DNA of 64,000 nucleotides from Hyphomicrobiales bacterium (GTDB lineage Bacteria > Pseudomonadota > Alphaproteobacteria > Rhizobiales > CBDCVD01): assembly GCA_965222955.1 (NCBI GenBank), contig OZ244974.1, forward strand, positions 2,178,977 to 2,242,976. The letters run 5' to 3'. A program made the translations under genes and the position numbers. The notes under the pieces were generated by a model, which saw only the letters and a program-made list of their open reading frames with translations, did not search any database and was not told where the DNA came from. Below are positions 1,670 through 53,627 of this stretch, one piece after another. Each line of letters begins with the position of its first letter. Within the stretch, counting starts at the first letter, position 1.

Positions 1670-1725
1670 CTGGAGCATGTCAGGTCTTAATAGAACTGGT
1701 TCTATTAAGACCTGACATGCTCTGG
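1670..1725. repeat. family A hairpin repeat, copy A1 (short-loop variant)
   Basis: CTGGAGCATGTCAGGTCTTAATAGAACTGGTTCTATTAAGACCTGACATGCTCTGG, with ~23-bp complementary arms. It is followed by ACACGCTAG, a partial extra arm ending in CTAG at 1731..1734. Confidence 0.85.
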
Positions 1726-1730
1726 ACACG

Positions 1731-4428: not shown

Positions 4429-4509
4429 GTCTTTAACTTCCTCTACGCAAAACCGTTTGCTACGTCATCGCCGCCGCGACAAAAAGTACCCACAATATCG
4501 CAGCACTAG

Positions 4510-4660
4510 ATGTGTCATTTCAACAGGTTGTTCCCGGGACGGACAAATCTGGCGTGATACCTATTGCGGCCGTCGCCGCGATAGAGCCAGTTCGGGCCAT
4601 TTGTCTGATGATGGCCACCTGCACCCGACAGGTTTGCAAGAACAAACTGCTGAATTGACG
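4510..4660 (+). repeat. family E repeat, full-length copy E2
   Basis: Starts right after CTAG (4506..4509). Left end ATGTGTCATTTCAACAGGTTGTTCCCGG; right end CAAGAACAAACTGCTGAATTGAC (degenerate inverted terminus). The interior holds both internal modules (..GGCCATTTGTCTGATGATGGCC..GCACCCGACAGGTTT). Confidence 0.7.
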
Positions 4661-4706
4661 CAACGGACTAATACCACGCAATTGCGTCCGAGAAAACCCT
4701 CAGAAC

Positions 4707-6517: not shown

Positions 6518-6535
6518 TAACCGGAAGCCTGGCGA

Positions 6536-6588
6536 GTTGAGTGTGAAAAGTCCCTCGGCTTCGCCTCGGTCTACTTTTTCCATTCGAC
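6536..6588. repeat. family C hairpin repeat, copy C1
   Basis: GTTGAGTGTGAAAAGTCCCTCGGCTTCGCCTCGGTCTACTTTTTCCATTCGAC. The arms GTTGA.TGTGAAAAG / CTTTTTC.ATTC.AC enclose CCCTCGGCTTCGCCTCGG. It fills the gap between convergent yqgE-like and EAL genes. Confidence 0.8.
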
Positions 6589-9500
6589 TATTCAGCCGCC
6601 TCAATTGCGCTGGCATAGTTGATCAGATACCGCTCCGCCTCATCACACGACATGGGCCGTGCATAGAGAAATCCCTGTGCGTATTCCGCCCCCAGCTTCG
6701 CGATTTCCTGGGCATCCGCCTGAGTCTCGATACCGCCGGCGACCACCTCCATACCAAGATCGTGCGCCAGAGCAACGATTGAGCGCAAAATATGCGAGCG
6801 TACACCGCTGGCGGAATGAATGAAGGTGCGATCGATCTTCAACATATCAAAGGGAAACTGCTGCAAATAACTCAGCGATGAATAGCCTGTGCCGAAGTTA
6901 TCGAGACTTAGGCGAATATCGAGATCGCGCAACCGCGCGATAATATGCATCGCCAGTTCCGGATTTTCGATCATCAGGGATTCGGTGATTTCCAGATTAA
7001 ACGTGTTCGGCCTGATGCCATCGCGCGAGAGGACCGCCTTGATTTCGCGAACAAGGTCCTGGCGCAACAACTGCTTGTTGGAAATATTGACATGCATGGT
7101 CATGGGCTTGTTGAGCGTGTACTTGCGTTGCCAGGCGCCCAACTGCCGGCTGGCGTGACTGAGAACGTAAAACCCCAGATCGACAATCATCTCGGAGCGT
7201 TCCGCAACGGGGATAAACTCCCCTGGCAGGATCATGCCACGGCGCGGATGAGCCCAGCGCGCCAGCGCCTCAAAACCACGTAACGTATTGTCTTTCAAGG
7301 AAATAATCGGTTGAAAATACAACTCGATTTCCTTGCGTTTGAGCGCCTCGCCAAGATCACTCTCGCGCAGCATGGGATTGCCCTGGCGCAACGCCGGACG
7401 AAACGCCTCGATCCGCCCACCGCCAAGGCCGCGCGCATGGTACATCGCCAACTCCGCATCGCCCAGCAACGTCGCCGCTTCCAGGTGCTCGCTCTGCGCA
7501 CCGGGCTGAACAACCCCGATGGAGCACGACAGTTTCAGTTCGTGAACCGAAAACGCGATCGGTTCGGCGACGATATTGCGCACCCGTCTGGTAAACTGCG
7601 CGATGGCCTTGGCATCCGTGTACGATAAAAGCAAAATGCCGAAACAGTCCCCGCTGATACGAGCCAACGTATCCTGCGGCTGCAAAAGCCGCGCCATGCG
7701 CCGCGACAGGGTAAGCAGAATCGCATCCCCCATCGACAGGCCGAACTCCTCGTTTATGGCACGAAAGCGATCCACATTGACAACGAGCAGCGTCGGTCTG
7801 GAACCCTTTCCAGGTTCGAGCCGGGTGAGAATCCGCGAAAGACGGTCCAGAAAGAGTTGCCTGTTCGGCAGTCCGGTCAGATTGTCGTTTACGGCATCAT
7901 GCAGCAGCCTCTCCTGGCTCAGGCGGGCTTCCGTCACATCGGCCAAGGTGCCCACACAGCGCACGACGGCATTCGCGGCACTGATAACCGGCCTGGCGCG
8001 CAGTAAAAATATGAAATAGTGCCCATCACAGGCCCGCAGGCGAAACTCCTGCGCAATATGATCGCGCTGACGGGTGACAATGGCATCGAGCGCCTCACGA
8101 TAGATGTCCCGATCACTGGGATGGAGTTGATCCAGCCACTTGTACGCCGGACCGCACAGGGCCCCATAGGCAAGACCCAGCAAATGCTCCACTTTCGTAC
8201 TGGTAAACAACTGGTCGCGATCGACGTCCCAGTCCCAGATCAGATCGCCGGACCCCATCAGCGCCAGGGCGCGACGCTCACGATCCTTGCTTTCGTCGTG
8301 AAGCATTGAGCTTCCTGTGACCGCGTGCTGAAGCACGGTAAAGCCGATCAGCAGGGCGATCAGCACCAGCCCGCCGACCAGCGCCGGCGACGCTATATCG
8401 TTATTCAACCGCCCCGTCGCAACAAGTGCGGCGCCGCTCAGCCACGCCAACAGCAATATCCAGGTCGGCACCAGCATAATCGCGCGATCAAAGCGGCGCA
8501 CGGCAAAGAACCCGATAACGCCCGTACCCGCAACGGCGATCGCTGCCAGCGCCAAACGTGCCAGACCGGACGCAACCGGCGCATTATAAATCGACAGGGC
8601 AATCAGGCCGCCAAGTGCCACAATACAAAACAGCGCTACATGAAAAAAACCCGCATGCCAGCGATTGAGATGCAGGTAACTGTAAAGAAACAGCCACAGT
8701 GTTGCCGCCAGGAGCGCCTCGGCGCCGGCCCGGTAGATTTGATGCTGCCCGATCGTTGCGCCGAATACTTGTCCCCAGAAACCGAAATCGACGACCAGAT
8801 ACCCCAGTACCGCCCAAGCCAGCGCACTAACGGCAACAAATACCAGCCCGCCGCGAATAATCGTCAGCACGCTTAAAAAAAGCACCAGCAGACCGGCTAT
8901 ACCCAGCACAATGCCCTCATAAAAGGTCAGGCGGTTGACACTGTCCTTATAGGCGTCTGGCTCCCACAGATAGAGTTGCGGCAATCGCGTGCCATTCAGT
9001 TCGGCGACAAACGTGACCACCGCGCCAGGATCAAGGGTCAGGCGGAAGATATCCGCATCGACGCGCGCCAGACGCTCCGGCGCAAACCCCTGGCTGGGGG
9101 TAATCGCCCGAATGCGCGAGGCGCCCAGATCGGTCCACAGCACCCCGGAACCGCTAAGGCGGTAATGGGGCGCCACAAGAAGGCGATCCAGTTGCTCATC
9201 CGAGCTGTTGGACAGCGCGAATACGACCCAATCGCCGCTGCCACCGGCGTCGCGCGGCTGCACTTCGATACGGCGCACAATACCATCCGCGTCCGCGGCT
9301 GCGGTAAGCTGAACGCCGCCCGAGCGGTTGCGATGCCACTCCAGCCCTGGCGCCAGGTCCAGCGCCGGCGCCGCGATGTCCACTTCCATGGGCGTTACCC
9401 CTATGGCGGCACCTGGAGCCTGAAGCATCGCCCAGACGAATGCAACCAGATATACCCATAACGGGCATTGCCCGCCCCTGGCTTGCAAGGGGCGGGACGG

Positions 9501-11114: not shown

Positions 11115-11131
11115 CGGCTCTCTCCTTTTTA

Positions 11132-11184
11132 GTTGAATGTGAAAAAGCCCCCTCGGCTTCGCCTCGGTCTGCTTTTTCCGAATA
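11132..11184. repeat. family C hairpin repeat, copy C2 (right arm degenerate)
   Basis: GTTGAATGTGAAAAAGCCCCCTCGGCTTCGCCTCGGTCTGCTTTTTCCGAATAA. Confidence 0.7.
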
Positions 11185-11188
11185 AAAT

Positions 11189-11214
11189 AAGGACAACCTG
11201 TTGAAAGATCACAT
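11189..11214 (-). repeat. family E terminus fragment (E4)
   Basis: AAGGACAACCTGTTGAAAGATCACAT followed directly by CTAG (11215..11218). Confidence 0.65.
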
Positions 11215-12063
11215 CTAGCGCACAGCGCCGCGCGCCTGGCGTATGGCTCCGTACAGCCAAACGCCATAAACCAGGACCAACGCCGCGGCAAGGCCAAACC
11301 AGGTTAATGCATAAGCCAGATGATTGTTCGCGAAAACAAGTCGCGTCTCGCCGCCCTGGGGCAAGGCACCGGAAGGACCTGCCATTGCATCAACGTAAAA
11401 CGGCGCCACTCGAATGCCAACGCGGTTCAGACCGTGAGCGCGCGCAAAGGCTGCCGGATCGCGTGTATACCAGACATTGCCGGCGATATCCGCCTCCGGG
11501 CTCGCCCAGTCCGCCCGATGCGCGGAACGAACGATCCCCTCAATCGTCTGCGCGGACACGGTAATGCTCTCGGCGCGCGTATGGGACGCCTTGCGCTCAA
11601 GCGGCACAAAGCCGCGATTCACATAAACAATCGCCTCCCGGGCACCTTCATGGCGCGGCGCCCTCATGCCATCGGCACAGTCAGACGCGTTCAGGCGCAG
11701 AGGCGTCAGAACCCAGTATCCCTGCCCCCCAAACCGGCCCCTCGGCTCGCTGAGAGCGGTATAAACATGGGCTTCGAGATCATGCAGAAAACACCCGCGT
11801 AGCTGCACGCGCGTATAAGCCGACAACGCTTCCTCCACGCCACCCAATGAACGTGGCACCGTTGCCATCCGCGTCTCGATTGCAGCCAGCAACCCGGTTT
11901 TCCATTTCAGCCGGTGTAACTGCCAACGCCCCAGCGCGAGCAGCACCAGCAAGGCGGCAAGCGCAAAAACCGTGAAAATAACAACGCGGGGGTGGCGTAG
12001 CATTTCAGGAACGGACAAATTCGCCGGATTCCAGCGTGCGCTGTCATGCCTGGTGTTCATCAT
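11215..12063 (-). CDS. SURF1 family cytochrome oxidase biogenesis protein
   Basis: N-terminal TM followed by LGRWQLHRLKWK (the SURF1 hallmark), and a C-terminal TM with YALTWFGLA. It lies in the cta cluster. Start may be a downstream ATG (12003). The TAG stop lies in a CTAG abutting E4. Confidence 0.85.
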   Translation of the reverse strand: MMNTRHDSARWNPANLSVPEMLRHPRVVIFTVFALAALLVLLALGRWQLHRLKWKTGLLAAIETRMATVPRSLGGVEEALSAYTRVQLRGCFLHDLEAHVYTALSEPRGRFGGQGYWVLTPLRLNASDCADGMRAPRHEGAREAIVYVNRGFVPLERKASHTRAESITVSAQTIEGIVRSAHRADWASPEADIAGNVWYTRDPAAFARAHGLNRVGIRVAPFYVDAMAGPSGALPQGGETRLVFANNHLAYALTWFGLAAALVLVYGVWLYGAIRQARGAVR

Positions 12064-18187: not shown

Positions 18188-18511
18188 TCACATTATCGCA
18201 CGTATTGCCGCACATATAATCGCATATTCTCGCCCGCTGACGTGCATTGGCTGGCCGCGGGGATGCGAATACAACCCCTGACACACCCTGGCCTGCCCTG
18301 ACCTGCCCTGACGCGTTTCCCACAACGAGGCGGTTCGCAAGCACACCCGAGCCCACCAGGGGAATCATCCGGTTTCGACTCGATACCCCGTCCCGCGGTT
18401 CTAACAAAGCATATCATGGCGGCGGCATCAATTCCCTTTTCGGTCCATGGATGCGGCATTTTTTCCGAACCGGCGTCCATTGATGCCAAACACCAGCGCC
18501 CATGCATTCAG

Positions 18512-18650
18512 GTGTGATCTTTCAGCACGTTGTTTCCAGGACAGGCAAACCGGATGGGATCCCTCTTGTGCCCTTGCCGCCAGGGAGGCCATATCGGGCC
18601 ATCCATCTGCACCCGACGGGTTTACCAGGAACAACCTGTTGAAATTACAT
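18512..18650 (+). repeat. family E repeat, full-length copy E5
   Basis: GTGTGATCTTTCAGCACGTTGTTTCCAGGACAGGCAAACCGGATGGGAT..CCCTTGCCGCCAGGGAGGCCATATCGGGCCATCCATCTGCACCCGACGGGTTTACCAGGAACAACCTGTTGAAATTACAT. Both termini and both internal modules are present. A family A one-arm fragment follows at 18653..18668 (TTAGAGCGTGTCCAGG). Confidence 0.85.
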
Positions 18651-18837
18651 ATTTAGAGCGTGTCCAGGCCGGACAACAAGTGCGGTTCGCGGCCATCACG
18701 GAAACGAATTCGCCCCGGTACCATGATTCGCGTGATATTCCATGATATTCATTGTACCGTTGTTGTGCTGCTGTGATTTGACCCTGTGGGATGACGGGAT
18801 GGCTTGAGGTAAACGTTGCTCATTTTATAGACTCCAG

Positions 18838-19019: not shown

Positions 19020-19601
19020 ATGATAAACTCCCCCGCACACTGGCGCGATGGCGCGCGGTTTGTTTTGCGATTGTGGCTTGCAATGTATTTTTCAGGGGCA
19101 CGGCGCCCGGGTCTGTACCGGGCAATCGTTACCGTGTTTGCCTTTGCATTTGCGCTCCCGGCGGCGCAGGCGCAGAGCGCAACGCAAAAGACCTTCGGCG
19201 CCTGGGAAATGCGTTGCGAGCAACCGAGCGGCGCGCGTAATACCGAATGCGCCCTTGTTAACAGCGTTACATCCAGCGACGACAATGGTGTCGCGCTGAC
19301 CGTTCTGGCGCTGAAGACGGCCGACAACAAGGTACATCTTTTGCGCGTATTGGCGCCCCTTGGTGTTCTTCTGCCGCCCGGGCTGGGCCTGAAAATCGAT
19401 GACACGGACGTGGGTAGCGCCGAATTCGCCAAGTGTTTGCCGAACGGTTGTCTGGCCGAGGTGATTTTGAGCGAGACCCAGATCGCGCGCTTTAAAACCG
19501 GAAAGTCAGCGCTGTTCATTATTTTTAAATCTCCTAATGAAGGGATCGGAATTCCCATTGATTTGAATGGCTTTGCTCAGGGTCTTGAAGAATTGCCTTA
19601 G
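19020..19601 (+). CDS. invasion associated locus B (IalB) family protein
   Basis: Signal peptide (..FAFAFALPAAQAQ), then TFGAWEMRCEQP..ECALV..LRVLAPLGVLLPPGL.LKIDD..CLPNGCLAEV, typical of the IalB family. Start is ATG 19020 (GAAAGG 12 nt upstream) or ATG 19083. The TAG stop lies in TTAG at the edge of E15. Confidence 0.8.
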   Translation: MINSPAHWRDGARFVLRLWLAMYFSGARRPGLYRAIVTVFAFAFALPAAQAQSATQKTFGAWEMRCEQPSGARNTECALVNSVTSSDDNGVALTVLALKTADNKVHLLRVLAPLGVLLPPGLGLKIDDTDVGSAEFAKCLPNGCLAEVILSETQIARFKTGKSALFIIFKSPNEGIGIPIDLNGFAQGLEELP

Positions 19602-19650
19602 AGCCAGGTGTGTAAATGCAACAGATTGTTCCCGGTGAATCCAGCGGATG
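19602..19650 (+). repeat. family E terminus fragment (E15)
   Basis: AGCCAGGTGTGTAAATGCAACAGATTGTTCCCGG.. (compare E14 CCAGGTGTGTAATTTCAGCAGGTTGTCCCTG). It is followed by a family A one-arm fragment, CTGGAGCGTGTCAG, at 19651..19664. Confidence 0.6.
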
Positions 19651-19685
19651 CTGGAGCGTGTCAGTTTTTAGCTGAAAGGCTCTAG

Positions 19686-21130
19686 CAGTGTGTCGGGTTT
19701 AAGGAGTTGTTTGTCAGTGTATCGGTCATGGATATGTGTTGGCGAGGGCTTTGCTGAACCTGCCTTAGCCGCTCAGCATGTTGCTCAGACGTTTGCAGTT
19801 GTACGCCAGCGCTACAAGACACCATTCCCGTGAAACCTTCTCAAGACCGCGAAGATGAAAATGCCTGAAACCAAGTACCGATTTGATTATGCCAAAAACA
19901 GGCTCAACGCTGCTCTTTCGTCTTTTGTATTTGTCTTTTGCCGACCGGGATCGAAATCTCTCCAGCATCTGTAAGCGCCACGGCTCTCTAACACGAGGCG
20001 GCGGCTTGCTGCGCGCCTTCGGCGGCCGGAAATCATAAGGGCGCCGTGCCTGTTCACGCTCTAACGCTATCAAAGGTTCAATGTCACGCTCATCAAGCGC
20101 CTCAACAACAGTCTTACCAGCATAACCCGTATCCGCTATAAGCGTCTCGGGCTTGCCAACACGCGCGCACAAGTCATCAACAAAGATATCCAAATCCTGA
20201 CGATCATTCGTCGTGGTAAGAACTTGCGTACCCAAAACCAATTGGCTGCCATCCGCATCCACAAAAGCTTGCGCATTATAAGCCTGACGGTATTCGTGGC
20301 GTGACGACCGGCGCATGATAGAACTGTCCGGATCGCTCAGATTAATCTGGTTCTCAGGACAAGGCCGTGGCGGATTGCCCCCATCATCCTGATCTTGCCC
20401 ATCACAACGCGCCGCCGCCTCAAGTTGTGCGGCTGCCACGTCCAACTTCGCCTTTAACGTTTGCCGCCGCGCTATCTCGTCGGGGAGAGACAAACCATCA
20501 TCCGTATCCTGTTCATCTGCCGCCTCGGCCCTGTCCATCAACGCCGCAATGTCCTCTGCAAGCTTCGCCCGTAACGCCTGGATACGATCATAACGTATCG
20601 ACTTGATCTTTGAAGCATTCGCATCAATCTGCGTGCCGTCGAGGGCGACCGTGCCCACCCTTAAAAGACCCATCTGTTTGGCCAGCAACAGGATATGCGT
20701 AAACGCCGCCTCAAAGGCAGGACCGTTGTCACGCCGGAACTTGGCGATCGTGTCATGGTCCGGATGGCTGTTGGCGGCGATAAAGCGGACAGAAACATTG
20801 CGATACGTTGCCTGCTCTATCTTGCGCGAGGAAAAAACACCAATGGCGTAACTATAAATCAACAGGGCCACCATCATGCGCGGATGATATTGTGCTTTTC
20901 CTGAGCCGGTGCGGCTGACGTGAAAGGCGTTCATATCTATGCGTTCGACGGCTTCCACGATAAAATGGGCCAAGTCGTCATCTGCCACCCAGTCTTTGAG
21001 ATCAGGAGGCAAAAGCAGCCGCTGAGAGCGGTCATAATTGCGAAAATTGTTCATACAAATCCGTAGCACAAATCCAAAAACCCCTGTATGCAAACTTAAC
21101 GAATAACCACAGCATAAATCCGACACACTG
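19686..21130 (-). mobile_element. IS1182-family insertion sequence, apparently intact (1445 bp)
   Basis: Terminal inverted repeats are CAGTGTGTCGGGTTTAAGG (19686->) and CAGTGTGTCGGATTTATG (reverse complement of ..21130). The first 11 nt are identical and about 15 of the first 17 match. Direct CTAG at 19682..19685 and 21131..21134 is consistent with a 4-bp target duplication. It carries a single transposase ORF. Confidence 0.85.
19765..21054 (-). CDS. IS1182-family (IS5-like DDE) transposase
   Basis: N-terminus MNNFRNYDRSQRLLLPPDLKDWVADDDLAHFIVEAVERIDM and C-terminal VEPVFGIIKSVLGFRHFHLRGLEKVSREWCLVALAYNCKRL are characteristic of IS1182-group transposases. An acidic coiled middle is present. 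Start set at ATG 21054. Confidence 0.85.
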   Translation of the reverse strand: MNNFRNYDRSQRLLLPPDLKDWVADDDLAHFIVEAVERIDMNAFHVSRTGSGKAQYHPRMMVALLIYSYAIGVFSSRKIEQATYRNVSVRFIAANSHPDHDTIAKFRRDNGPAFEAAFTHILLLAKQMGLLRVGTVALDGTQIDANASKIKSIRYDRIQALRAKLAEDIAALMDRAEAADEQDTDDGLSLPDEIARRQTLKAKLDVAAAQLEAAARCDGQDQDDGGNPPRPCPENQINLSDPDSSIMRRSSRHEYRQAYNAQAFVDADGSQLVLGTQVLTTTNDRQDLDIFVDDLCARVGKPETLIADTGYAGKTVVEALDERDIEPLIALEREQARRPYDFRPPKARSKPPPRVREPWRLQMLERFRSRSAKDKYKRRKSSVEPVFGIIKSVLGFRHFHLRGLEKVSREWCLVALAYNCKRLSNMLSG

Positions 21131-21162
21131 CTAGAAGTTTCACCTCAGATTTATCCGTCTTG

Positions 21163-21352: not shown

Positions 21353-21976
21353 ATGATTTCCATGATACGCGATCTTTTCGACCGCCCGCGTGGTCGGCGA
21401 AGGCGTGCCATACCGACGCTGAATGATCGCATAATCATCATTCTACTCGCTCTTGTGCCGCTGGGCGCATGCGTCGCCCCGAGGCCCGGCGCCGGTGGCG
21501 CTTTTTCCTACGATACCAACGCCTGGCGGCAAGAGCGCATGGCGAACGGCGATCCTGCGTTTGTTTGCGATCCCGGTGTTTGCGGAGAGCCGGTGCGGGT
21601 CGAGACCTATGTGGAAGACCTCTCCCAGGCCGCCGCCCTGCAAAGCTCCCAACAGGGGCTGGAATTCGTCCAGGCCTATCTGCCGCAATTCAGCCGGCAG
21701 TTCGTAGCCGATTATACCCGCAATGGATTTCGCGTCGATCGCGTGATCGGCCCCCGCCAGACCCGTTTTCGCCAATCGCCGGCCTTCTATTGGCGTTTCG
21801 AACTCACCCACACCGATACCGGCAAGCACTTTAAGGACACGACAGCCGTTGTCGTCCTGCCCGGCAAAATGCTGGGCGTTACCGCGCATGCGTCGCGCTT
21901 TTCCGTCTCCGATAAATACATGCGGCAATTCATCAACGGCTATCACGGCATACTGATGCCCGCTGGAGACACATGA
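21353..21976 (+). CDS. hypothetical lipoprotein, translationally coupled to purQ
   Basis: Start at ATG 21353 (MISMIRDLFDRPRGRRRRA..IIIILLALVPLGAC, with lipobox LGAC). I recognise no family. Its stop overlaps the purQ start (ATGA at 21973..21976). Confidence 0.55.
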   Translation: MISMIRDLFDRPRGRRRRAIPTLNDRIIIILLALVPLGACVAPRPGAGGAFSYDTNAWRQERMANGDPAFVCDPGVCGEPVRVETYVEDLSQAAALQSSQQGLEFVQAYLPQFSRQFVADYTRNGFRVDRVIGPRQTRFRQSPAFYWRFELTHTDTGKHFKDTTAVVVLPGKMLGVTAHASRFSVSDKYMRQFINGYHGILMPAGDT

Positions 21977-22656
21977 AGAGCTGCGTTATTGTCTTTCCCG
22001 GCTCCAATCGCGAGGACGATGCGATACGCGCCATCGCAGGTACCGGCGCCCGCGCCCCCCTGCCCGTCTGGCATGCGGATACGCACCTGCCCCGGTGCGA
22101 TCTGGTTGTCCTGCCCGGCGGGTTTTCCTATGGCGACTATTTGCGCCCCGGCGCCATCGCCGCGCGCGCGCCCATTATGCGCGCTATCGCCGATCATGCC
22201 GCTCAGGGCCGCCTGCTTTTGGGGATCTGTAACGGTTTTCAGATTTTGACCGAGTGCGGGCTGCTTCCCGGCGTATTGCAGCGCAATCGCGCCCTGCGTT
22301 TTATCTGCAAACAGGCACATGTACGCGTGTGCCGCACCGATACGCCCTTTACCCATCGCTATCGCAATGACCAGGTGATGCGGGTGCCCATCGCCCATCA
22401 CGATGGCAATTACTTCGCCGATGCCGATACCCTGGCGCGCCTTGAGGACGAGGCCGGTGTTGTCCTTCGCTATTGCAACACCGATGGCCAGGTGACCGCC
22501 GCTGCCAACCCGAACGGCTCGCGCAACAATATCGCCGGAATTATCAACAAGAACGCCAACATACTCGGGCTGATGCCCCACGCCGAGAACGCCGTCGACC
22601 ATCGCCACGGCGGCACCGACGGCCAGGCCCTGTTCGCCGCGTTGTACCAGCGCTAG
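21973..22656 (+). CDS. purQ: phosphoribosylformylglycinamidine synthase subunit PurQ (glutaminase)
   Basis: 227 aa. VIVFPGSNRE, LPGGFSYGDYLR, GICNGFQIL (catalytic Cys), MPHAENA. The TAG stop is part of the CTAG that opens hairpin A2. Confidence 0.95.
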   Translation: MKSCVIVFPGSNREDDAIRAIAGTGARAPLPVWHADTHLPRCDLVVLPGGFSYGDYLRPGAIAARAPIMRAIADHAAQGRLLLGICNGFQILTECGLLPGVLQRNRALRFICKQAHVRVCRTDTPFTHRYRNDQVMRVPIAHHDGNYFADADTLARLEDEAGVVLRYCNTDGQVTAAANPNGSRNNIAGIINKNANILGLMPHAENAVDHRHGGTDGQALFAALYQR

Positions 22657-22714
22657 AGCGTGTCAGGTCTTAATAGAAACAGAATTGCTTCTATTAAGAC
22701 CTGACACGCTCTAT
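22653..22714. repeat. family A hairpin repeat, copy A2
   Basis: CTAGAGCGTGTCAGGTCTTAATAGAAACAGAATTGCTTCTATTAAGACCTGACACGCTCTAT, with ~25-bp arms. Confidence 0.9.
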
Positions 22715-22772
22715 ATGTGTAGTTTCAACAGGTTGTTCCCGAAAAACCCATCGGGTGCTGCTGGCCATCCCC
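22715..22772 (+). repeat. family E repeat, half element (E8)
   Basis: ATGTGTAGTTTCAACAGGTTGTTCCCGAAAAACCCATCGGGTGCTGCTGGCCATCC. It directly abuts A2. Confidence 0.75.
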
Positions 22773-23756: not shown

Positions 23757-23817
23757 CTGGAGCGTGTCAGGTCTTCACAGAACCAATTCTGTTTATATTA
23801 AGACCTGACACGCTCTC
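23757..23817. repeat. family A hairpin repeat, copy A3 (divergent loop)
   Basis: CTGGAGCGTGTCAGGTCTTCACAGAACCAATTCTGTTTATATTAAGACCTGACACGCTCTCG. Confidence 0.85.
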
Positions 23818-23842
23818 GTTACAATTGGGAACGCGACAGGCC

Positions 23843-24205: not shown

Positions 24206-26455
24206 ATGTCCTACAATGAGCCAACGATCACCCCTGAGCTTGTAGCCGAACACGGTTTGAGCGATGACGATTATGCCAAAATCCTGAGCCTTCTGGGGCG
24301 CCCGCCGCGCTTTACCGAATTGGGCATCTTCTCCGCCATGTGGAACGAGCATTGTTCCTATAAGTCGTCGAAAAAATGGCTGCGCACCCTGCCTACGCAA
24401 GGTAGACGGGTGATCACGGGTCCGGGAGAGAACGCCGGCGTTATCGACATCGGCGACGGGCTGGCGGCGGTGTTCAAGATCGAGAGCCACAATCACCCCT
24501 CGTTTATTGAGCCCTATCAGGGCGCGGCGACTGGAGTCGGCGGCATCCTGCGCGATGTCTTTACCATGGGCGCGCGCCCCATCTGCGCCATGAATGCGTT
24601 GCGCTTTGGCGATCCCGATCACGAGAAAACACGTCACCTGCTGAACGGCGTCGTTGCCGGCATCGGCGGCTACGGGAATTCGTTTGGCGTACCGACCATC
24701 GCCGGCGAAATCGGCTTTGACAAGCGTTACAACGGGAATATCCTGGTCAATGCATTTGCCTGTGGGATCGCGCCCGCCAACAGGATATTCTATGCCAGGG
24801 CAAGCGGCGTTGGATTGCCGGTGGTCTATCTCGGCGCCAGGACGGGGCGCGACGGCATCCATGGCGCGACCATGGCGTCGGCTGAATTCACCGATGACGT
24901 GCACGCTATTGATGCGAAACGGCCAACGGTGCAGGTGGGCGATCCGTTTACCGAAAAGCGCCTGATGCAGGCCTGTCTGGAACTGATGCAGGCGGGCGCA
25001 GTAGTCGCCATTCAGGACATGGGAGCAGCCGGACTGACGTGCTCGGCGGTTGAGATGGGGGCCAAGGGCGATCTCGGAATCGCGCTTGATCTTGATCGCG
25101 TGCCGTGCCGCGAAGAGGCCATGAGCGCCTATGAAATGATGCTCTCGGAGAGCCAGGAGCGCATGTTGATGGTCCTTGATCCGGCCAGGCAACAGACCGC
25201 CGCCGGTATCATGGAAAAATGGGGGCTTGATTTTGCTGTCATTGGCGAGACCACCGATGATTTGCGCTTTCGTATCCAGCACGGGGGCGAGTGTGTCGCC
25301 GATCTGCCCATCAAGGCCCTTGGCGATCAGGCGCCGGAATATGACCGGCCCCATGTACCCACGCCGTCGCGCCCCGATGTAAAATCGCCCCAGGTACCCG
25401 AGCCGGACGATTTTGCCGGGGTGCTGGTCGCGATGATGGGTTCGCCGCATTTGTGTTCGCGCCGCTTTGTGTGGGAGCAGTACGATCACTATATTCTGTC
25501 CAACACTGTTCTGCCGCCGGGCGCCGATGCCGCCGTTGTGCGCATCGGCGACAGCAATCGCGGCCTGGCCTTTTGCGTCGACACAACACCGCGCTATTGC
25601 GCCGCTGATCCGTATCAGGGCGGCAGGCAGGCAGTGGCGGAGGTCTGGCGCAATCTCAACTGCGTGGGCGCGCAGCCCCTGGCGATCACCAATTGTCTTA
25701 ATTTCGGCAATCCGGAACGGCCCGAAATCATGGGCCAGTTGGTCGATTGTATCCGCGGCATCAGCGCCGCCTGTACAACCCTTGAGATGCCTGTCGTCTC
25801 GGGCAATGTATCCCTCTACAACGAGACCGAGGGCGTCGCCATTCCGCCGACGCCAACAATCGCCGGTGTGGGTCTGATCGCGGATCTGGACGTGATGGTC
25901 ACACCCGCCTTCAAACGGGCGGGCGATTCTCTCTATCTCGTGGGACGCGATACGGGCCTGCTCAATCAATCGCTCTACCTGCGCGATATCGCCGGTATCG
26001 AGGATAGCGCCGCGCCCGGCGTCGATCTTGAGCAGGAGAGGCGCAATGGCGACTTCGTGCGGTCCCTCATTGAGGCCCGCGCCATCAACGCCTGTCACGA
26101 TATTGCCGATGGCGGCCTTCTTGTCGCTGTAGCGGAGATGGCCCTTGCCGCCGGTATGGGGGCCACCCTTCGCCTCGATCCGGCCCCTGGGTATCGTCTT
26201 GCGGCATATTTTGGCGAAGCCCAGGGGCGCTATGTGATCGCCAGCGCCACTCCTCTTGAGGCACTTGCGGCTCAATATAACGCCCGATCGGAAGCCGATG
26301 GCGCCCCGTCAATCGATCTGATGCATATCGGTCGCGTGGGCGGCGAGATGCTTCTGGTGGATACGGTACTGGCGGTGGCCCTGGAGGTGCTTCGCCGCCC
26401 CCATGAGACCTGGCTTGCCGATTACGCCGATGGCGCCGGCGCCTCAAGGGACTAG
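24206..26455 (+). CDS. purL: phosphoribosylformylglycinamidine synthase subunit PurL
   Basis: 749 aa. [35 protein letters not shown] and duplicated AIR-synthase-like domains. The TAG stop is part of the CTAG that opens hairpin A4. Confidence 0.95.
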
Positions 26456-26513
26456 AGCGTGTCAGGTCTTAATAGAAACAGAATTGCTTCTATTTAGACC
26501 TGACACACTCTGG
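26452..26513. repeat. family A hairpin repeat, copy A4
   Basis: CTAGAGCGTGTCAGGTCTTAATAGAAACAGAATTGCTTCTATTTAGACCTGACACACTCTGG. Confidence 0.9.
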
Positions 26514-27409: not shown

Positions 27410-28042
27410 ATGAGCGGAGAGCTTGGAACCCTGGAATTAAGCGCACTACTATGCTCACGTGTTTGCCACGACATCATCAGCCCCGTCGGCGCCGTCATCA
27501 ACGGCCTTGAGGTTCTGGAGGAGGACAACAGCGAGGAAATGCGCGCTTTTGCCGACGATCTTATCCGCAAAAGCGCCAACCAGGCCTCGGCCAAACTGCA
27601 GTTCGCCCGCCTCGCCTTTGGGGCGGCCGGCTCGGCAGGCGCCGAAATCGATACCCGTGATGCGCAAGCCGTCGCCGCCGCCTATGTGGGTAACGAGAAA
27701 ACCCGTCTGGAATGGAACATCGCGCCGCTCCTGATGGCCAAGAACAAGGTCAAACTCCTGCTCAATCTGATTATTATCGGCGGTCATACGATCCCGCGCG
27801 GTGGCACCATTGCGGTTTCCATGCAAGGGGATGCGCAAGGCCCCGCCTTTGTGCTGGCGTGCACGGGAACGGGGGCACGTATTCCCGATGACACCAAGGC
27901 GCTTCTTGCGGCAAAAGCGGATCCGGATACGATCGATGCCCATCGTGTACAGGCTTATTACACCGGCTTGCTGGCGCGTGCGAGCCACATGGAGATCGAT
28001 CTGACCCTGCACGATGAGTGCGTCACCATCAGCGCCCACTAG
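27410..28042 (+). CDS. chpT: histidine phosphotransferase ChpT (CtrA phosphorelay)
   Basis: 210 aa. LLCSRVCHDIISPVGAVINGLEVLEE (HisKA-like His box without a kinase ATP lid), typical of alphaproteobacterial ChpT. The TAG stop is part of the CTAG that opens A5. Confidence 0.85.
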   Translation: MSGELGTLELSALLCSRVCHDIISPVGAVINGLEVLEEDNSEEMRAFADDLIRKSANQASAKLQFARLAFGAAGSAGAEIDTRDAQAVAAAYVGNEKTRLEWNIAPLLMAKNKVKLLLNLIIIGGHTIPRGGTIAVSMQGDAQGPAFVLACTGTGARIPDDTKALLAAKADPDTIDAHRVQAYYTGLLARASHMEIDLTLHDECVTISAH

Positions 28043-28393
28043 AGCGTGTCAGGTCTTAATGGAAGCAATTCTGTTTCTCGATTGGCGAGGCGATACCCAC
28101 GCTCAAGGCGATCGAAGAGCGATGGCGACCCATCTCTCGAGAGCGGCTTGGGCGTGGGCGTCCGCCAATCGGAAACCCGAAGGGACGGGCGATTTTGCTA
28201 TAGATTTCAGGGCGATCAGCTTTATGCGTTTCGCATTACCCTTGGCAAAATGGGTACAGCGAAACGCATGCTGATCTAATATGAACCTTAAGTCTCTTGA
28301 AAATAGCCCCACTATATCCTGCGAGACTTAAGGCCCATCTTGTCGCAAAAGTGCTCCGTCAGAATGGTTCTATTAAGACCTGACACGCTCTAG
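28039..28393. repeat. family A hairpin (copy A5, long form) split by a ~285-bp nested insert of further palindromes
   Basis: The left arm at 28039..28078 (CTAGAGCGTGTCAGGTCTTAATGGAAGCAATTCTGTTTCTCG) and the right arm at 28362..28393 (GAATGGTTCTATTAAGACCTGACACGCTCTAG) are separated by three units. These are palindrome CGATTGGCGAGGCGATACCCACGC/GCGTGGGCGTCCGCCAATCG (28079..28171), family D copy D1 (28214..28276) and hairpin CCTTAAGTCTC/GAGACTTAAGG (28286..28333). Confidence 0.75.
28214..28276 (+). repeat. family D hairpin repeat, copy D1
   Basis: GATCAGCTTTATGCGTTTCGCATTACCCTTGGCAAAATGGGTACAGCGAAACGCATGCTGATC. The reverse complement of the 37303..37365 copy matches at most positions. Confidence 0.8.
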
Positions 28394-32529: not shown

Positions 32530-32563
32530 CGCCAGGTGCCACCTGGAGCGTGTCAGATAAAAG

Positions 32564-33781: not shown

Positions 33782-33881
33782 TACCAGCGGTATTGGCTTT
33801 TTTACACGCTGACTTGTGTATTCTGCTGAGAAGACAACGGTTTTAAACCGGGCCAGGAGTCAAACGCAAAGCCCCCTGGTA
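33782..33881 (+). mobile_element. family B MITE-like element, copy B2
   Basis: TACCAGCGGTATTGGCTTTTTTACACGCTGACTTGTGTATTCTGCTGAGAAGACAACGGTTTTAAACCGGGCCAGGAGTCAAACGCAAAGCCCCCTGGTA. The flanks are CAA and TAA. Confidence 0.8.
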
Positions 33882-33939: not shown

Positions 33940-34116
33940 CTAGCCGCCGGCACCATCACGGCGCCCGGTCTCAGGATCGTCATCGTCATAAAGAATACGC
34001 TGCGCGGCACCATCGAGGTCTTCGAACTGGCCATTGCGCACGCACCACAAAAACACCAGCAACCCCCCACCGCCCAGAATCAGTGCCGCTGGAATCAGTA
34101 CCATAAGAGACGTCAT
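33940..34116 (-). CDS. ccoS: cbb3-type cytochrome oxidase assembly protein CcoS (FixS)
   Basis: Absent from the ORF track because it is under 60 aa. My own translation gives MTSLMVLIPAALILGGGGLLVFLWCVRNGQFEDLDGAAQRILYDDDDPETGRRDGAGG. One TM followed by W..R(N/S)GQFEDLDG...RIL.DDDD is the CcoS signature. Confidence 0.8.
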   Translation of the reverse strand: MTSLMVLIPAALILGGGGLLVFLWCVRNGQFEDLDGAAQRILYDDDDPETGRRDGAGG

Positions 34117-34574: not shown

Positions 34575-34618
34575 CGACGCCAGCATATTCGCGTCAGTGG
34601 GTTTTATTGAGACACGCT

Positions 34619-35236
34619 CTAGCGCGAGTAGAACTCAATCACCAGATTCGGCTCCATCTGCACCGGATACGGCACGTCGGCCAGGGCCGGAATGCGCGTA
34701 AGTGAAGCCGTCATTTTCGTGTGATCGGCGTCGATATAGTCCGGCACATCGCGCTCAGGACTCTGCAGCGCCTCAAGAACGATGATCAGGTCTTTGGAGC
34801 GCTTGCGCACCTCAACCACATCGCCCACCTTGCAGCGATAGCTCGGGATATTAACCCGGCGTCCATTAACGCGCACATGGCCGTGATTGACGAACTGCCG
34901 TGCGGCAAACACCGTAGGGACGAATTTGGCACGATAAACGATGGCATCAAGGCGCCGCTCAAGCAGGCCGATAAGATTCTCTGACGTATCCCCCTTTTGC
35001 CGTGACGCCTCACTATAGATGCGCTTGAACTGCTTTTCCGTGATATTGCCGTAATAACCCTTGAGCTTTTGCTTGGCGCGCAATTGCAGTCCGAAGTCGG
35101 AATGCTTGCCGCGCCGGCGCTGGCCGTGTTGGCCGGGACCGTAGTCGCGCGTATTGACGGGGCTCTTCGGCCGCCCCCAGATGTTCTCACCCAGACGGCG
35201 GTCGATCTTATACTTCTGTGTATGGCGTTTTGACAT
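34619..35236 (-). CDS. rpsD: 30S ribosomal protein S4
   Basis: [26 protein letters not shown]..., 205 aa, with an S4 RNA-binding domain. Start at ATG 35236. The TAG stop is part of CTAG 34619..34622 at a family A one-arm fragment (GAGACACGCTCTAG). Confidence 0.95.
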
Positions 35237-37188: not shown

Positions 37189-37302
37189 GGCAGGATCGGT
37201 GCGAATTCACGTTTATCGCTTTTCGCCCATACGCTTGTTTTATGATGATGCTGATTGATCTGTTATAATGAATTGTCAGGCGGGGCAAGCCTGTCCCGCC
37301 CA

Positions 37303-37365
37303 GATCAGCATGCGTTTAGCTTTACCGGTTTTGCCAGGGGTAAAGCGAAACGCATAAAGCTGATC
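37303..37365 (-). repeat. family D hairpin repeat, copy D2
   Basis: GATCAGCATGCGTTTAGCTTTACCGGTTTTGCCAGGGGTAAAGCGAAACGCATAAAGCTGATC. Confidence 0.8.
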
Positions 37366-37377
37366 ACCATGAAATTA

Positions 37378-37432
37378 GTTGAATGGGAAAAAGTGGACCG
37401 AGGCGAAGCCGAGGGAGTTTTTCACATTCAAC
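37378..37432. repeat. family C hairpin repeat, copy C3 (inverted core)
   Basis: GTTGAATGGGAAAAAGTGGACCGAGGCGAAGCCGAGGGAGTTTTTCACATTCAAC. Confidence 0.85.
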
Positions 37433-37437
37433 TTTGT

Positions 37438-37467
37438 AAGAACAACCTGTTGAGGTTACACAGATAG
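37438..37467 (-). repeat. family E terminus fragment (E10)
   Basis: AAGAACAACCTGTTGAGGTTACACAGATAG. Confidence 0.55.
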
Positions 37468-46429: not shown

Positions 46430-46528
46430 TACCAGCGGTATTGGTTTTCTACACGCTGACGTGTGCATCGTACTGACAAGACAACAGTTTTAAACCAAAC
46501 CAGGAGTCAAGCGCAAAGCCCCTTGTTA
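46430..46528 (+). mobile_element. family B MITE-like element, copy B3 (right end degenerate)
   Basis: TACCAGCGGTATTGGTTTTCTACACGCTGACGTGTGCATCGTACTGACAAGACAACAGTTTTAAACCAAACCAGGAGTCAAGCGCAAAGCCCCTTGTTA. The left flank is TAA. Confidence 0.75.
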
Positions 46529-46562
46529 TCAGATATATAATACCCGCGGCGCTAGAGCGTGT

Positions 46563-46823
46563 CATGTCAGCAGGCTGTTCTCAAGAAAACCATCGGGTGC
46601 AGGGGGCCATTCATCCGATCATTAGAGATGTTCTATTTATCCTGCGCTGTCAAGGGCGCTTCGCACCGCCCGTGGCGGTTCTTAAACCTTTGACAGTGCA
46701 GGATAAATAGAAAAAAAGCGATGATCAGATCAATGGCCCGGTATGGCCTTGCTGGCGGCAAGGGCGTATAAGGTATCCCTTCCGGTTTGCCTGTCCTGGG
46801 AACAACCTGCCGAAGGGTCGCCT
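46563..46823 (+). repeat. family E repeat, full-length copy E11 carrying a nested 82-bp hairpin
   Basis: CATGTCAGCAGGCTGTTCTCAAGAAAACCATCGGGTGCAGGGGGCCATTCATCCGATCATT ... GGCCCGGTATGGCCTTGCTGGCGGCAAGGGCG..CCGGTTTGCCTGTCCTGGGAACAACCTGCCGAAGG. It is preceded by a family A one-arm fragment (CTAGAGCGTGTCA, 46552..46564). Confidence 0.75.
46631..46712. repeat. singleton 82-bp hairpin nested in E11
   Basis: Arms TTCTATTTATCCTGCGCTGTCAA (46631..46653) and TTGACAGTGCAGGATAAATAGAA (46690..46712), with one mismatch. I saw no other copy in the window. Confidence 0.7.
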
Positions 46824-46885
46824 CTAGAGCGTGTCAGGTCTCAATAGAAGCAATTCTGTTTCTATTAAGACCTGACACGCTCCAG
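46824..46885. repeat. family A hairpin repeat, copy A6 (loop inverted relative to A2/A4)
   Basis: CTAGAGCGTGTCAGGTCTCAATAGAAGCAATTCTGTTTCTATTAAGACCTGACACGCTCCAG. It is followed by CGCCAATACCGCTGTAA, a solo family B terminus-like fragment (46886..46902). Confidence 0.9.
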
Positions 46886-48456: not shown

Positions 48457-48460
48457 TTCC

Positions 48461-48515
48461 GTTGAACGTGAAAAAGTCCCCCGGCTTTGCCTCGGTCTAC
48501 TTTTTCACATTCAAC
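48461..48515. repeat. family C hairpin repeat, copy C4
   Basis: GTTGAACGTGAAAAAGTCCCCCGGCTTTGCCTCGGTCTACTTTTTCACATTCAAC. It starts 4 nt after the tRNA 3' end. Confidence 0.85.
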
Positions 48516-48518
48516 GGA

Positions 48519-52279: not shown

Positions 52280-52344
52280 AGCCTGGGTATCGCCTCGCCA
52301 ATCGAGAAACAGAATTGCTTCTATTAAGACCTGACACGCTCTAG
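52276..52344. repeat. family A repeat, copy A7 (long form, one extended arm)
   Basis: CTAGAGCCTGGGTATCGCCTCGCCAATCGAGAAACAGAATTGCTTCTATTAAGACCTGACACGCTCTAG. Confidence 0.85.
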
Positions 52345-52428: not shown

Positions 52429-52479
52429 CTGCAGCGTGTCCGGTTCTGAAAACCGGCGGCTGTCACGAAAGCGCACCAT

Positions 52480-53603: not shown

Positions 53604-53627
53604 TATACTTTACACTGAACGCAACAC

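Follow-up and report, generated by a model that had tools for sequence, protein, structure and literature searches.

An IS1182-family insertion sequence flanked by CTAG and small, probably related MITE-like elements at TAG stop codons

Small, non-coding repeats lie directly at the TAG stop codons of several genes in a 64-kb stretch of bacterial DNA, which we refer to in full as “the window”. Most of these stop codons are part of the tetramer CTAG, and the same tetramer flanks both ends of an intact insertion sequence (IS) of the IS1182 family in the window. We argue that the repeats, i.e., families A and E, their 61-nt and 347-nt variants, and solo copies of the terminal sequence AGCGTGTC, are very probably MITE-like derivatives related to this IS. 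A sequence-only reading of the window had described the stop codons as “supplied” by the repeat boundary. This is misleading, because the TAG is probably pre-existing target DNA and not element DNA. By contrast, the suggestion that the elements target CTAG and duplicate 4 bp is well supported by the IS in the window, the flanks of its homologs, direct repeats, and two genes in a related genome. The landing of such elements on stop codons is known transposon behavior, not a new mechanism.

An intact IS1182-family element

The IS, 1445 bp in length, occupies positions 19686–21130 on the minus strand, and was missed in the sequence-only reading. A single transposase gene (19765–21054, 429 aa) lies between terminal inverted repeats of the form CAGTGTGTCGG(G/A)TTTA; the ends of the 1445-bp element are CAGTGTGTCGGGTTTAAGG and CAGTGTGTCGGATTTATGC. 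The target duplication is visible as CTAG on the left (19682–19685) and on the right (21131–21134). The transposase scores 325.5 bits against NCBIfam model NF033551 (cutoff 270), and 73.6 bits against the next-best model, IS5, which is below the cutoff of 140. Its Pfam domains are DUF772, DDE_Tnp_1, and DDE_Tnp_1_6. The element is a new member of the IS1182 family. It is like ISPse1 and the copies on Komagataeibacter and Acetobacter plasmids in its DDE transposase domains, ~1.4-kb length, and short inverted repeats, and like ISPse1 in its 4-bp duplication; it is at most 54% identical to the annotated copies (those on the Komagataeibacter and Acetobacter plasmids). An IS630/Tc1-type element was considered and rejected, given that the transposase is of the IS1182 type rather than the DDE_3 type and that the flanks are 4-bp direct repeats.

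Four copies in the genome of the closest relative, an uncultured organism, have 92% DNA identity to the IS; the housekeeping proteins of this relative are only 64–73% identical to those of the window. The intact ORF and the 92% identity between such divergent genomes suggest that the IS has been active recently.

Target preference and length of the target duplication

In the closest relative, each of the four IS copies lies between two CTAGs. Two of these IS-end CTAGs form the TAG stops of genes, one transaldolase-like and the other encoding an ABC ATPase, and the other side of all four copies is a family A arm. CTAG/CTAG flanks are also found for a more distant copy (L086) and for a Komagataeibacter plasmid copy. 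One Acetobacter plasmid copy, with inverted-type flanks TTAG/CTAA, is an exception to the 4-bp duplication; for the plasmid copies, which are 54% identical, the flanks are CTAG or YTAR. In another organism (L087), represented by the left end only, the order is CTAG, a 39-nt hairpin, CTAG, and then the IS.

Homologs at 80 metagenome loci provided 69 IS ends, with CTAG at 46 and YTAR at 61. Left and right flanks are identical in 19 of 29 pairs. With a palindrome such as CTAG, identical flanks fit a 2-bp as well as a 4-bp duplication. However, the metagenome pairs include the non-palindromic CTTG/CTTG, TCAG/TCAG, CTAA/CTAA, and TTAG/TTAG, and the occurrence of such flanks as direct repeats indicates that the duplicated target is 4 bp long. 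The remaining ten pairs are mismatched between sides, and assembly chimeras may be behind some of them. A duplication of 4 bp is also known for ISPse1, a captured IS1182-family IS of Paracoccus (PMC3281130). Judging from the flanks of these copies, the CTAG target is general across this IS clade.

MITE-like elements in the window

The small elements are non-coding and 54–347 nt long, with at least 14 A-type and at least 18 E-type ends in the window. They fall into size classes of 54, 61, about 150, and 347 nt, together making up ~5% of the window, and the genome of the relative has many more copies. All have terminal inverted repeats. These form a near-perfect palindrome in family A and inverted arms in family E, and the 347-nt form has A-type sequence at both ends. 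In size, lack of coding capacity, copy number, inverted repeats, and target duplication, both families and the two variants (61 and 347 nt) have the properties of MITEs.

Target duplications are seen as CTAG/CTAG at 28039/28390, 46552/46824, and 52276/52341, and as CTGG/CTGG at 1670/1722, where there is also a paralogous empty site; in other pairs, the two sides are mismatched at one base. Family A flanks in the window are CTAG (six), CTGG (three), CCAG (two), CTAT, ATAG, and CGAG, with a similar spread for family E; in the relative, CTAG is next to 12 of the 15 ends of family A. Of 19 exact matches to the 8-mer AGCGTGTC in the window, 17 follow CTAG or a tetramer that departs from it at one or two bases. 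Solo AGCGTGTC fragments, including one at rpsD, are not accounted for by a model of insertion at CTAG.

The ends of the small elements resemble those of the IS. In one IS copy, CTAG is followed by AGCGTGTCGGATTT, in family A by AGCGTGTCAGGTCT, and in family E by ATGTGTCAT. In its first 8 nt, AGCGTGTC, family A is identical to the end of one IS copy from the relative; the common core is GTGTC and the target is shared, although the window IS starts with CAGTGTGTC instead. The resemblance is modest: the IS and the small elements have 8–12 nt in common, and the likeness fades past about 12 nt. The IS transposase may mobilize the small elements. An exact family A 22-mer had zero matches in JGI metagenomes, and families A and E had no match in plasmids. 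Rfam models, applied to the window at gathering thresholds, detected one tRNA only.

Several family A and E elements lie at sites other than C-TAG stops, all on the plus strand. A full-length family E element (18512–18652) with flanks TCAG/TTAG (18508–18656) is off any stop, and another family E copy (4506–4665), whose left CTAG (4506–4509) is intact, is intergenic. A family E copy at 46556–46823, flanked by CTAG/CTAG, adjoins a family A copy at 46828–46881 (46552–46885 overall); the CTAG at 46824–46827 is common to both, and the distal flank of the family A copy is CCAG. Three observations of the sequence-only reading on other stop codons hold. The left flank of a family E copy at 55108–55210 (GTAA/GCAA; 55104–55214) contains the TAA stop of a 2-hydroxyacid dehydrogenase gene, a family A copy at 23761–23814 (CTGG/CTCG; 23757–23818) begins 3 nt past the TGA of a lipoprotein gene, and the TAG of an EAL gene adjoins a hairpin of another family.

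Elements at stop codons

Eight genes had been proposed to end in a CTAG (once TTAG) that bounds a family A or E repeat. The eight stop positions are correct, and all seven claimed CTAGs are in the list of CTAGs for the window. The eight ORFs are real genes according to Pfam (CBS, SURF1, IalB, GATase_5/purQ, AIRS/purL, HPTransfase/chpT, S4/rpsD, and Polysacc_deac_2), and in all eight proteins the Pfam domains reach within a few residues of the C-terminus. The association with a repeat is clean for SURF1, purQ, purL, chpT, and the YibQ-like deacetylase gene, and looser for rpsD, CBS, and IalB, where it involves a fragment, an offset, or a TTAG.

The elements at purQ and purL are 54-nt family A hairpins on the plus strand. 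At purL (26452–26513), the hairpin (26456–26509) follows a proximal CTAG (26452–26455) that serves as the stop of purL, and the flank on the far side has decayed to CTGG (26510–26513). At purQ (22653–22714), the proximal CTAG is likewise the stop, the hairpin spans 22657–22710, and the distal flank, CTAT, is common to the family A copy and an adjoining family E half-copy (22715–22770). The chpT site (28039–28393, plus strand) consists of a 347-nt non-coding element (28043–28389) with A-type inverted ends and CTAG/CTAG flanks, the left of which is the stop. A chimeric arrangement of a hairpin plus a half element (28039–28110 and 28357–28393) was rejected for this site because the relative shows one 347-nt element, with many copies at 89–95% identity; the region downstream of chpT is therefore re-read as a single element. 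The YibQ-like deacetylase gene also ends in the left CTAG of a CTAG/CTAG pair (52276–52344, plus strand), here around a 61-nt A/B element (52280–52340). At SURF1 (11190–11218, minus strand), a family E right-end fragment extends to 11214, next to the CTAG at 11215–11218 that is the stop.

The remaining sites are less complete. At rpsD (34609–34622, minus strand), a solo 8-nt terminal fragment, AGCGTGTC on the minus strand, directly follows the stop CTAG (34619–34622), with the full repeat and hairpin absent. The CBS site (1670–1734, minus strand) comprises a family A copy (1674–1721), a solo fragment ACACGCT, and the CTAG at 1731–1734 that is the stop. This CTAG overlaps the solo fragment (CT-AGCGTGTCCAG); the family A copy is further out and has CTGG/CTGG direct-repeat flanks of its own on the plus strand (CCAG in the orientation of the gene). 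The paralogous empty site of this copy (A1) is AGCGTGTCCAGG at 18657–18668. At the IalB-like gene (19598–19650, plus strand), the TTAG stop (19598–19601) is followed by AG, a CCAG flank, and a left-end fragment of family E that begins at 19608, such that the TTAG is 2 nt away from the CCAG flank.

Occupancy of C-TAG stops is far higher than that of other stops. CTAG is rare in the 64-kb window, which has 19 CTAGs as opposed to 30.6 expected from a Markov estimate, with 15 of the 19 accounted for by element ends. In control genomes CTAG is also rare, at 0.41 per kb. Elements occupy 7 of 8 C-TAG stops in the window vs 1 of 46 other stops (Fisher p = 3.5e-7). Under a random model with 42 termini and 10.2 kb of non-coding DNA, 0.11 termini are expected on a stop, as compared to 8 seen (P about 5e-13). 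The sole unoccupied C-TAG stop (CTAG at 33940–33943) belongs to fixS/ccoS (33940–34116, minus strand; Pfam PF03597, E = 6e-21), and serves as a natural empty target. In the closest relative, an element end is found directly after five of six C-TAG stops and 21 nt from the sixth, whereas none of seven C-TAA stops is occupied. For the window and the relative together, 12 of 14 C-TAG stops are directly occupied, and nine C-TAA stops across the window genome and the relative are unoccupied.

A point against the model of insertion at CTAG is the high frequency of C-TAG, which makes up 8 of 54 stops in the window, as compared to 5 of 81 purL orthologs and 1 of 64 purQ orthologs elsewhere. In control genomes, which, like the sequences for C-terminal comparisons, were 60–65% identical relatives from a purL scan of reference genomes, CTAG closes a long ORF about twice as often as other stop-containing tetramers. 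Flanks of metagenome IS copies end an ORF of ≥60 codons in 8 of 29 cases; this test is uninformative because 34% of control-genome CTAGs do the same in one orientation, and both figures are inflated by long spurious ORFs in GC-rich DNA.

How orthologs end bears on whether the stops pre-date the insertions, and matching ends are seen for some genes but not for others. Orthologs of purQ, purL, and chpT end 2–5 residues away, mostly with TGA or another stop. In the nearest relative, purL ends two residues later with A-TAG and chpT three residues later with TGA; most of the 64 purQ orthologs end 2–5 residues later, mostly with TGA, and the listed ones close on a common ..AA motif that is not found in the purQ of the window. 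On the other hand, rpsD stops at the universally conserved end of S4, where its C-terminal EFYSR aligns with the final residue of S4 proteins of solved structure, and the EAL gene of the relative ends at the identical residue, also with TAG, but has no hairpin there. The mismatched ends are not decisive because the nearest relative is so divergent in protein sequence, and the C-termini of purQ, purL, and chpT are variable among orthologs generally. The EAL gene is the only orthologous site comparison; in the relative, SURF1 is not found beside thrC, whose neighborhood was examined.

Proposed mechanism and alternatives

We propose that the transposase would cut a 4-bp target for which CTAG is optimal, with YTAR and variants differing at one base being tolerated, and that repair of the staggered cut would duplicate the tetramer on either side of the element. 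CTAG is strongly depleted in the genome, and insertions in genes or regulatory sites would presumably be lost. The CTAGs that could be hit and retained would mainly be those at C|TAG stop codons and those made by earlier insertions; because earlier insertions create new CTAGs, elements would abut and nest. At a stop codon, which was probably C-TAG before each insertion, the duplicated target would keep the in-frame TAG in place, and the protein would therefore be unchanged, with the element becoming the first 3′ untranslated sequence.

Much of this evidence bears on two other ways of generating the flanks. If only the central TA were duplicated, as for an IS630-like element at CTAG, the outer C would come from the target and the G...C from the element. 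Insertion into TAA or TAG would then leave xTA+G, always giving TAG, and a C-TAA could be converted to C-TAG. The TTAG/CTAA flanks of the Acetobacter plasmid copy are exactly those expected for such an insertion at TTAA, the conversion could explain why C-TAG stops are commoner here than elsewhere, and palindromic CTAG/CTAG flanks fit equally well. Nevertheless, duplication of TA alone is quite unlikely. Positions 1 and 4 are part of the direct repeats, both in metagenome pairs and in the window pairs CTGG/CTGG and GTAA/GCAA. Several left flanks have A as their final base, which could not arise in this way. In addition, the repeats made by the family member ISPse1 are 4 bp long (PMC3281130), and C-TAA stops in two genomes are unoccupied. 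It is very improbable that CTAG is instead part of the element ends, with near-random insertion at gene 3′ ends, survival of those elements that supply an in-frame TAG, and trimming or extension of the proteins. Such trimming would fit the displaced ends of purQ, purL, and chpT and the loss of the conserved terminal AA from purQ, but flank tetramers co-vary as direct, not inverted, repeats, and are therefore target DNA. Moreover, rpsD stops precisely at the conserved end of S4, Pfam domains reach within a few residues of every C-terminus, the C-TAG stop of fixS exists without an element, and C-termini vary among orthologs in any case.

Two further alternatives start from the hairpins. IS1272, also of the IS1182 family, is reported to target inverted-repeat structures without target duplication (PMC5678879). 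With this precedent, and with all four IS copies in the relative adjoining a family A hairpin, the elements might be drawn to pre-existing hairpins or terminators downstream of genes, CTAG being incidental. This is extremely improbable, given that CTAG/YTAR is found at 88% of IS ends in many unrelated contexts, that the L086 IS and several family E copies are not beside hairpins, and that insertions are on the stop codon itself rather than in a downstream terminator; a common CTAG left by an earlier insertion suffices for abutment. Finally, the extragenic palindromes of family A are short and almost free of mismatches, as would be expected if the hairpins were REP-like sequences moved by a RAYT tyrosine transposase, or else local terminators, unrelated to the IS. 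We find this hardly credible: the flanks are duplicated, the terminal inverted repeats resemble those of a DDE-type IS, and a T-run is absent after the hairpins. In addition, copies are 89–95% identical between genomes whose housekeeping proteins are 64–73% identical, which indicates mobile DNA rather than products of local evolution.

Hairpins at gene ends

The sequence-only reading had also proposed that a long, stable hairpin is placed at the stop of many of these genes. This is the case for purQ and purL, as judged by folding, and for CBS, as judged by sequence, but not for rpsD, SURF1, chpT, the YibQ-like gene, and IalB, meaning that the proposed consequence was overstated. The purL hairpin has a folding energy of −37.1 kcal/mol (z = −7.8), with the UAG paired inside the stem, and the purQ hairpin one of −46 kcal/mol (z = −11.7); the hairpin of the 61-nt element at the YibQ-like gene is not significant (z = 0.35). 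The purL and purQ hairpins were rejected as intrinsic terminators because there is no T-run directly 3′ of these family A hairpins, which are followed by GGAAAAGCC and ATATGTGTA, respectively.

Where present, the hairpins may affect the mRNA. It is possible, though unlikely, that the elements or the host exploit the stable, UAG-pairing stem (−37 to −46 kcal/mol) at gene ends. In core genes, the stem could then modulate translation termination, the release of ribosomes, or the stability of the 3′ end, and the near-complete occupancy of C-TAG stops in the window and the relative would result from gene ends being actively preferred or selected for.

Relation to known systems and significance

Palindromic, CTAG-type targets that contain TAG are known from other IS families: IS5 has a YTAR target and a 4-bp duplication, IS630 targets CTAG and duplicates TA, and IS481 has an NCTAGN target. 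The transposases of these families differ from that described here, and the length of the IS630 duplication is at odds with the direct 4-bp flanks. REP, ERIC, and Correia elements are likewise small palindromes that occur in large numbers at the 3′ ends of genes and give stable stem-loops in the transcript, and elements of this type affect mRNA stability in other bacteria. However, they have other ends, targets, and mobilizing enzymes, and most of the eight sites considered here are without a strong hairpin.

A precedent in the passages of PMC3189936 on Pseudomonas syringae is MITEPsy1, a 100-nt non-coding element with inverted ends like those of ISPsy2 (IS5 family), which inserts at CTAG or YTAA with a 4-nt duplication. 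As described there, MITEPsy1/ISPsy2 differ in IS family and end sequences, and the window has several size classes and a much higher local density; a stop-codon association is not reported in those passages. The literature searched yielded no paper in which IS1182 is connected with CTAG or with MITEs, or MITEs with stop codons, which is not proof of novelty.

With the autonomous element identified, the repeats gain a concrete mechanism. A CTAG-targeting transposon in a CTAG-poor genome would be steered to C-TAG stops and to its own earlier sites, resulting in harmless insertions exactly at gene ends and in arrays of abutting elements. For annotation, TAG stops inside repeat ends are to be expected. 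The elements are also convenient markers of recent horizontal spread, considering the identity of the IS DNA relative to that of housekeeping proteins. If hairpins alter the fate of mRNA, the copies at purQ and purL are natural test cases, with a stem that starts inside the stop codon.

Element ends at stop codons

The sequence-only reading held that the TAG stop codons of at least eight genes are supplied by the tetramers that bound repeats of two families, A and E. On re-checking, all eight listed positions were correct, the stop being the TAG of CTAG in seven genes and of TTAG in one (the IalB-like gene). Pfam searches identified all eight ORFs as real genes: CBS, SURF1, IalB, a purQ-type amidotransferase, purL, a ChpT-type phosphotransferase, ribosomal protein S4 and a divergent, YibQ-like polysaccharide deacetylase. 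A gene map built from codon usage and corrected by hand has 54 genes in the window, of which 17 end in TAG, eight of these in C-TAG. Repeat terminal sequence directly contacts seven of the eight C-TAG stops; the eighth, that of fixS (33940–34116; PF03597, E = 6e-21; CTAG at 33940), lacks an element. Among the 46 other stops, such contact occurs once, at the G-TAA of a hydroxyacid dehydrogenase gene (Fisher p = 3.5e-7 for C-TAG versus other stops). Random placement of the 42 element ends in the 10.2 kb of non-coding DNA would put 0.11 on a stop, compared with eight observed.

The window has a G+C content of 58% and contains 19 CTAG tetramers versus 30.6 expected (Markov estimate), with element ends accounting for 15 of the 19. 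The four free copies are that of the fixS stop, two inside genes (3387 and 47979) and one (53898) a short distance upstream of the likely start of the hydroxyacid dehydrogenase gene. Across 80 control-genome loci (1.49 Mb), CTAG has a density of 0.41 per kb, and it closes ORFs of at least 100 codons about twice as often as other stop-containing tetramers do, consistent with the earlier suggestion that CTAG can persist at gene ends.

An IS1182-family insertion sequence and associated repeats

A complete insertion sequence (IS), overlooked in the sequence-only reading, occupies 19686–21130. Its 429-aa transposase matches NCBIfam NF033551 (IS1182 family) at 325.5 bits, above the cutoff of 270, and has DUF772, DDE_Tnp_1 and DDE_Tnp_1_6 domains; the IS terminates in inverted repeats, CAGTGTGTCGG(G/A)TTTA, with CTAG on both sides (19682 and 21131). 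By all sequence-level tests, it belongs to the IS1182 family.

Self-comparison of the window yielded ~29 repeat-bearing segments covering roughly 5% of its length, and the small elements have the structure that defines a MITE. Element ends were read outward from internal-sequence anchors. The 14 ends of family A (terminus AGCGTGTCAGGTCT) are flanked by CTAG (six), CTGG (three), CCAG (two), CTAT, ATAG and CGAG; the 18 ends of family E (terminus ATGTGTCAT or GTGTGATCT) are flanked by CTAG (five), then CTGG, CCAG, CTAT, ATAG, CTAA, GCAG, GTAA, TCAG, CCAA and TGCA. Non-canonical flanks (1670, 1722, 23757, 26510, 46882, 5831, 18906, 19604 and 57051) are mostly CTGG or CCAG, i.e., single transitions from CTAG that represent one change read on either strand. 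This pattern could reflect mutational bias against CTAG, or secondary targets. Solo 8–12-nt termini of family A or the IS (AGCGTGTC, often AGCGTGTCCAGG) also stand by themselves, without further element sequence, beside CTAG-like tetramers, at 34611–34618, 1726–1733, 18657–18668, 52433–52443, 32547–32556 and 19655–19664, and at ~21176 of L084, a locus from the closest relative genome; these may be deletion remnants.

Because families A and E co-occur with the IS and have its target and end core in common, they were plausibly mobilized by its transposase. In an unrelated organism (GCA_034669645.1; loci L087/L088), a 39-nt perfect hairpin, GTCGTATGGACTCTTGGGATTCCCAAGAGTCCATACGAC, has CTAG on both sides (~2900–2940 of L087) and directly abuts the CTAG that ends a 68%-identical IS1182-family IS. 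Thus, a CTAG-flanked mini-palindrome beside such an IS recurs outside the window genome and its relative.

The flanking tetramer as a duplicated target

Because CTAG is palindromic, CTAG/CTAG flanks do not distinguish a duplicated target from tetramers belonging to the element, whereas non-palindromic flanks do. We collected 80 metagenome loci with transposases 38–74% identical to that of the window, and analyzed flanks in the 43 with at least 43% identity. Of 69 ends, 46 are flanked by CTAG and 61 by YTAR; left and right flanks are identical in 19 of 29 pairs, including the non-palindromic direct pairs CTTG/CTTG, TCAG/TCAG, CTAA/CTAA and TTAG/TTAG, and none of the 29 is exactly inverted. In the window, the family A copy at 1674–1721 has CTGG/CTGG flanks, and its reconstructed empty site, AGCGTGTCCAGG, is intact at 18657–18668; two family E copies have the flanks TCAG/TTAG and GTAA/GCAA. 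Moreover, 4-bp repeats are generated by ISPse1, an IS1182-family member obtained by experimental capture in Paracoccus (PMC3281130). Together, these cases indicate that the tetramer is duplicated target, as the sequence-only reading had proposed; the duplication is most likely 4 bp long, with CTAG as the optimum. Exceptions are an Acetobacter plasmid copy flanked by TTAG/CTAA and 10 metagenome pairs with unequal sides, the latter of which could arise from chimeric assembly or recombination between copies.

IS5, IS630 and IS481 elements use CTAG-type targets, and the window elements resemble IS5-family elements and their MITEs in this respect. The literature search returned no paper linking IS1182 elements to CTAG, or placing MITEs on stop codons, and the MITE reviews examined do not mention stop codons. 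MITEPsy1 inserts into CTAG or YTAA, duplicating 4 nt of target (PMC3189936). Both the IS and the set of MITE families are new, and of a known kind.

Comparison with the closest relative genome

The best purL match (70% identical) and the best thrC match (64%) are both on one 3.5-Mb metagenome-assembled contig, ERZ25072999; the collections searched contain no close relative of the host. We sampled ~99 kb of this contig (loci L081–L085). It contains four copies of the window IS, all with CTAG/CTAG flanks; one flanking CTAG doubles as a gene's TAG stop in two of the loci, L081 (transaldolase-like gene) and L084 (ABC ATPase gene). A family A arm adjoins the other side of the IS in all four copies, one of which ends in CTAG followed by AGCGTGTCGGATTT, whose first 8 nt are common to family A. 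In this genome, CTAG also borders 12 of the 15 family A ends. Five of its six C-TAG stops run straight into an IS or MITE end and the sixth lies 21 nt from one; its seven C-TAA stops are all unoccupied.

Window 19672–21134 and the IS copies of L081–L084 share 92% DNA identity, and the 347-nt element at 28039–28394 matches many sites in L081–L085 at 89–95%. By comparison, purL, thrC, chpT and EAL proteins are only 64–73% identical between the two genomes, suggesting that the elements have spread horizontally in recent times.

For the seven C-TAG stops, the comparison provided no true orthologous empty site. The orthologue ends suggested earlier as a check gave a mixed answer. The relative's purL runs two residues further, to A-TAG, and its chpT three residues further, to TGA. 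Window purQ (21973–22656) is 2–5 residues shorter than most of 64 orthologues, which mostly end on TGA; all 27 listed orthologues end in ..A* (nearly all ..AA*), and window purQ lacks the ..AA. By that check, the mismatches count against insertion at pre-existing stops but are not decisive, given the 64–73% protein identity and the variability of protein tails. In favor of such insertion, the EFYSR end of the rpsD product aligns with the final residue of solved S4 proteins. The window and the relative also share the residue at which the EAL gene ends (..AAE-TAG), with a hairpin after the stop in the window only; since that hairpin is of a different family, this case shows only that insertion beside a pre-existing TAG stop occurs here.

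A possible route to stop codons

Under the model we favor, a CTAG-seeking transposase would act in a CTAG-scarce genome. Insertions within genes would be lost, and the survivors would be those at C-TAG stops and at CTAGs left by earlier insertions. Use of the latter as targets would account for arrays such as gene-CTAG-A-CTAT-E (purQ), E-CTAG-A (46824) and gene-CTAG-IS-CTAG-A (L084). Duplication would retain an in-frame TAG, such that the protein would be unchanged. Distal flanks have often drifted (CTGG, CCAG, CTAT) and stop-side flanks are intact; we infer that the proximal copy is maintained by selection on the stop. The link to stop codons is clean but predictable from the target.

Hairpins at mRNA ends

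A long stable hairpin had been predicted at the end of many mRNAs, that of a ribosomal-protein gene included. This holds for at most three of the eight genes: the family A copies at purL (−37.1 kcal/mol; z = −7.8) and purQ (−46 kcal/mol; z = −11.7) fold with the UAG paired in the stem, and that at CBS was judged from its palindromic sequence alone. Folds are not significant for chpT (z = −1.25), YibQ-like (z = 0.35), rpsD (z = −1.6) or SURF1 (z = 0.36). No hairpin is followed by a T-run, arguing against classical terminators.

Other repeats in the window

A third family of ~101 nt has ends TACCAG...CTGGTA and is TAA-flanked, on both sides in two copies. It occurs at 439–539, 33782–33881, 46430–46530 and 56874–56974, and also in the relative (L081 ~14711, just after the chpT stop); one copy is nested in a family A arm, splitting TTCTATTAA from GACC. 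Its flanks form a 3-bp TNA-type duplication, which points to a different transposase.

A hairpin family, GTTGAATGTGAAAAAG...CTTTTTCACATTCAAC, has four copies (6535–6590, 11131–11190, 37400–37440 and 48458–48518), and immediately beyond one end of each lies a TAG. In two, this TAG is a gene stop (EAL protein, 6588; HpcH-type aldolase, 48519), and the 48458 copy spans the whole gap from a tRNA 3′ end to the aldolase stop. A 74-nt sequence forms an inverted pair (28204–28277 and 37302–37375; 89% complementary); one copy lies within the 347-nt element downstream of chpT, and related copies occur in the relative at 83–88% identity. This 74-nt sequence probably represents a separate small mobile element, nested in the larger one. 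Lastly, a 15-nt unit, CCAGATACATCTCGC, is present in four perfect tandem copies (53627–53686) within a small minus-strand ORF (53610–53804).
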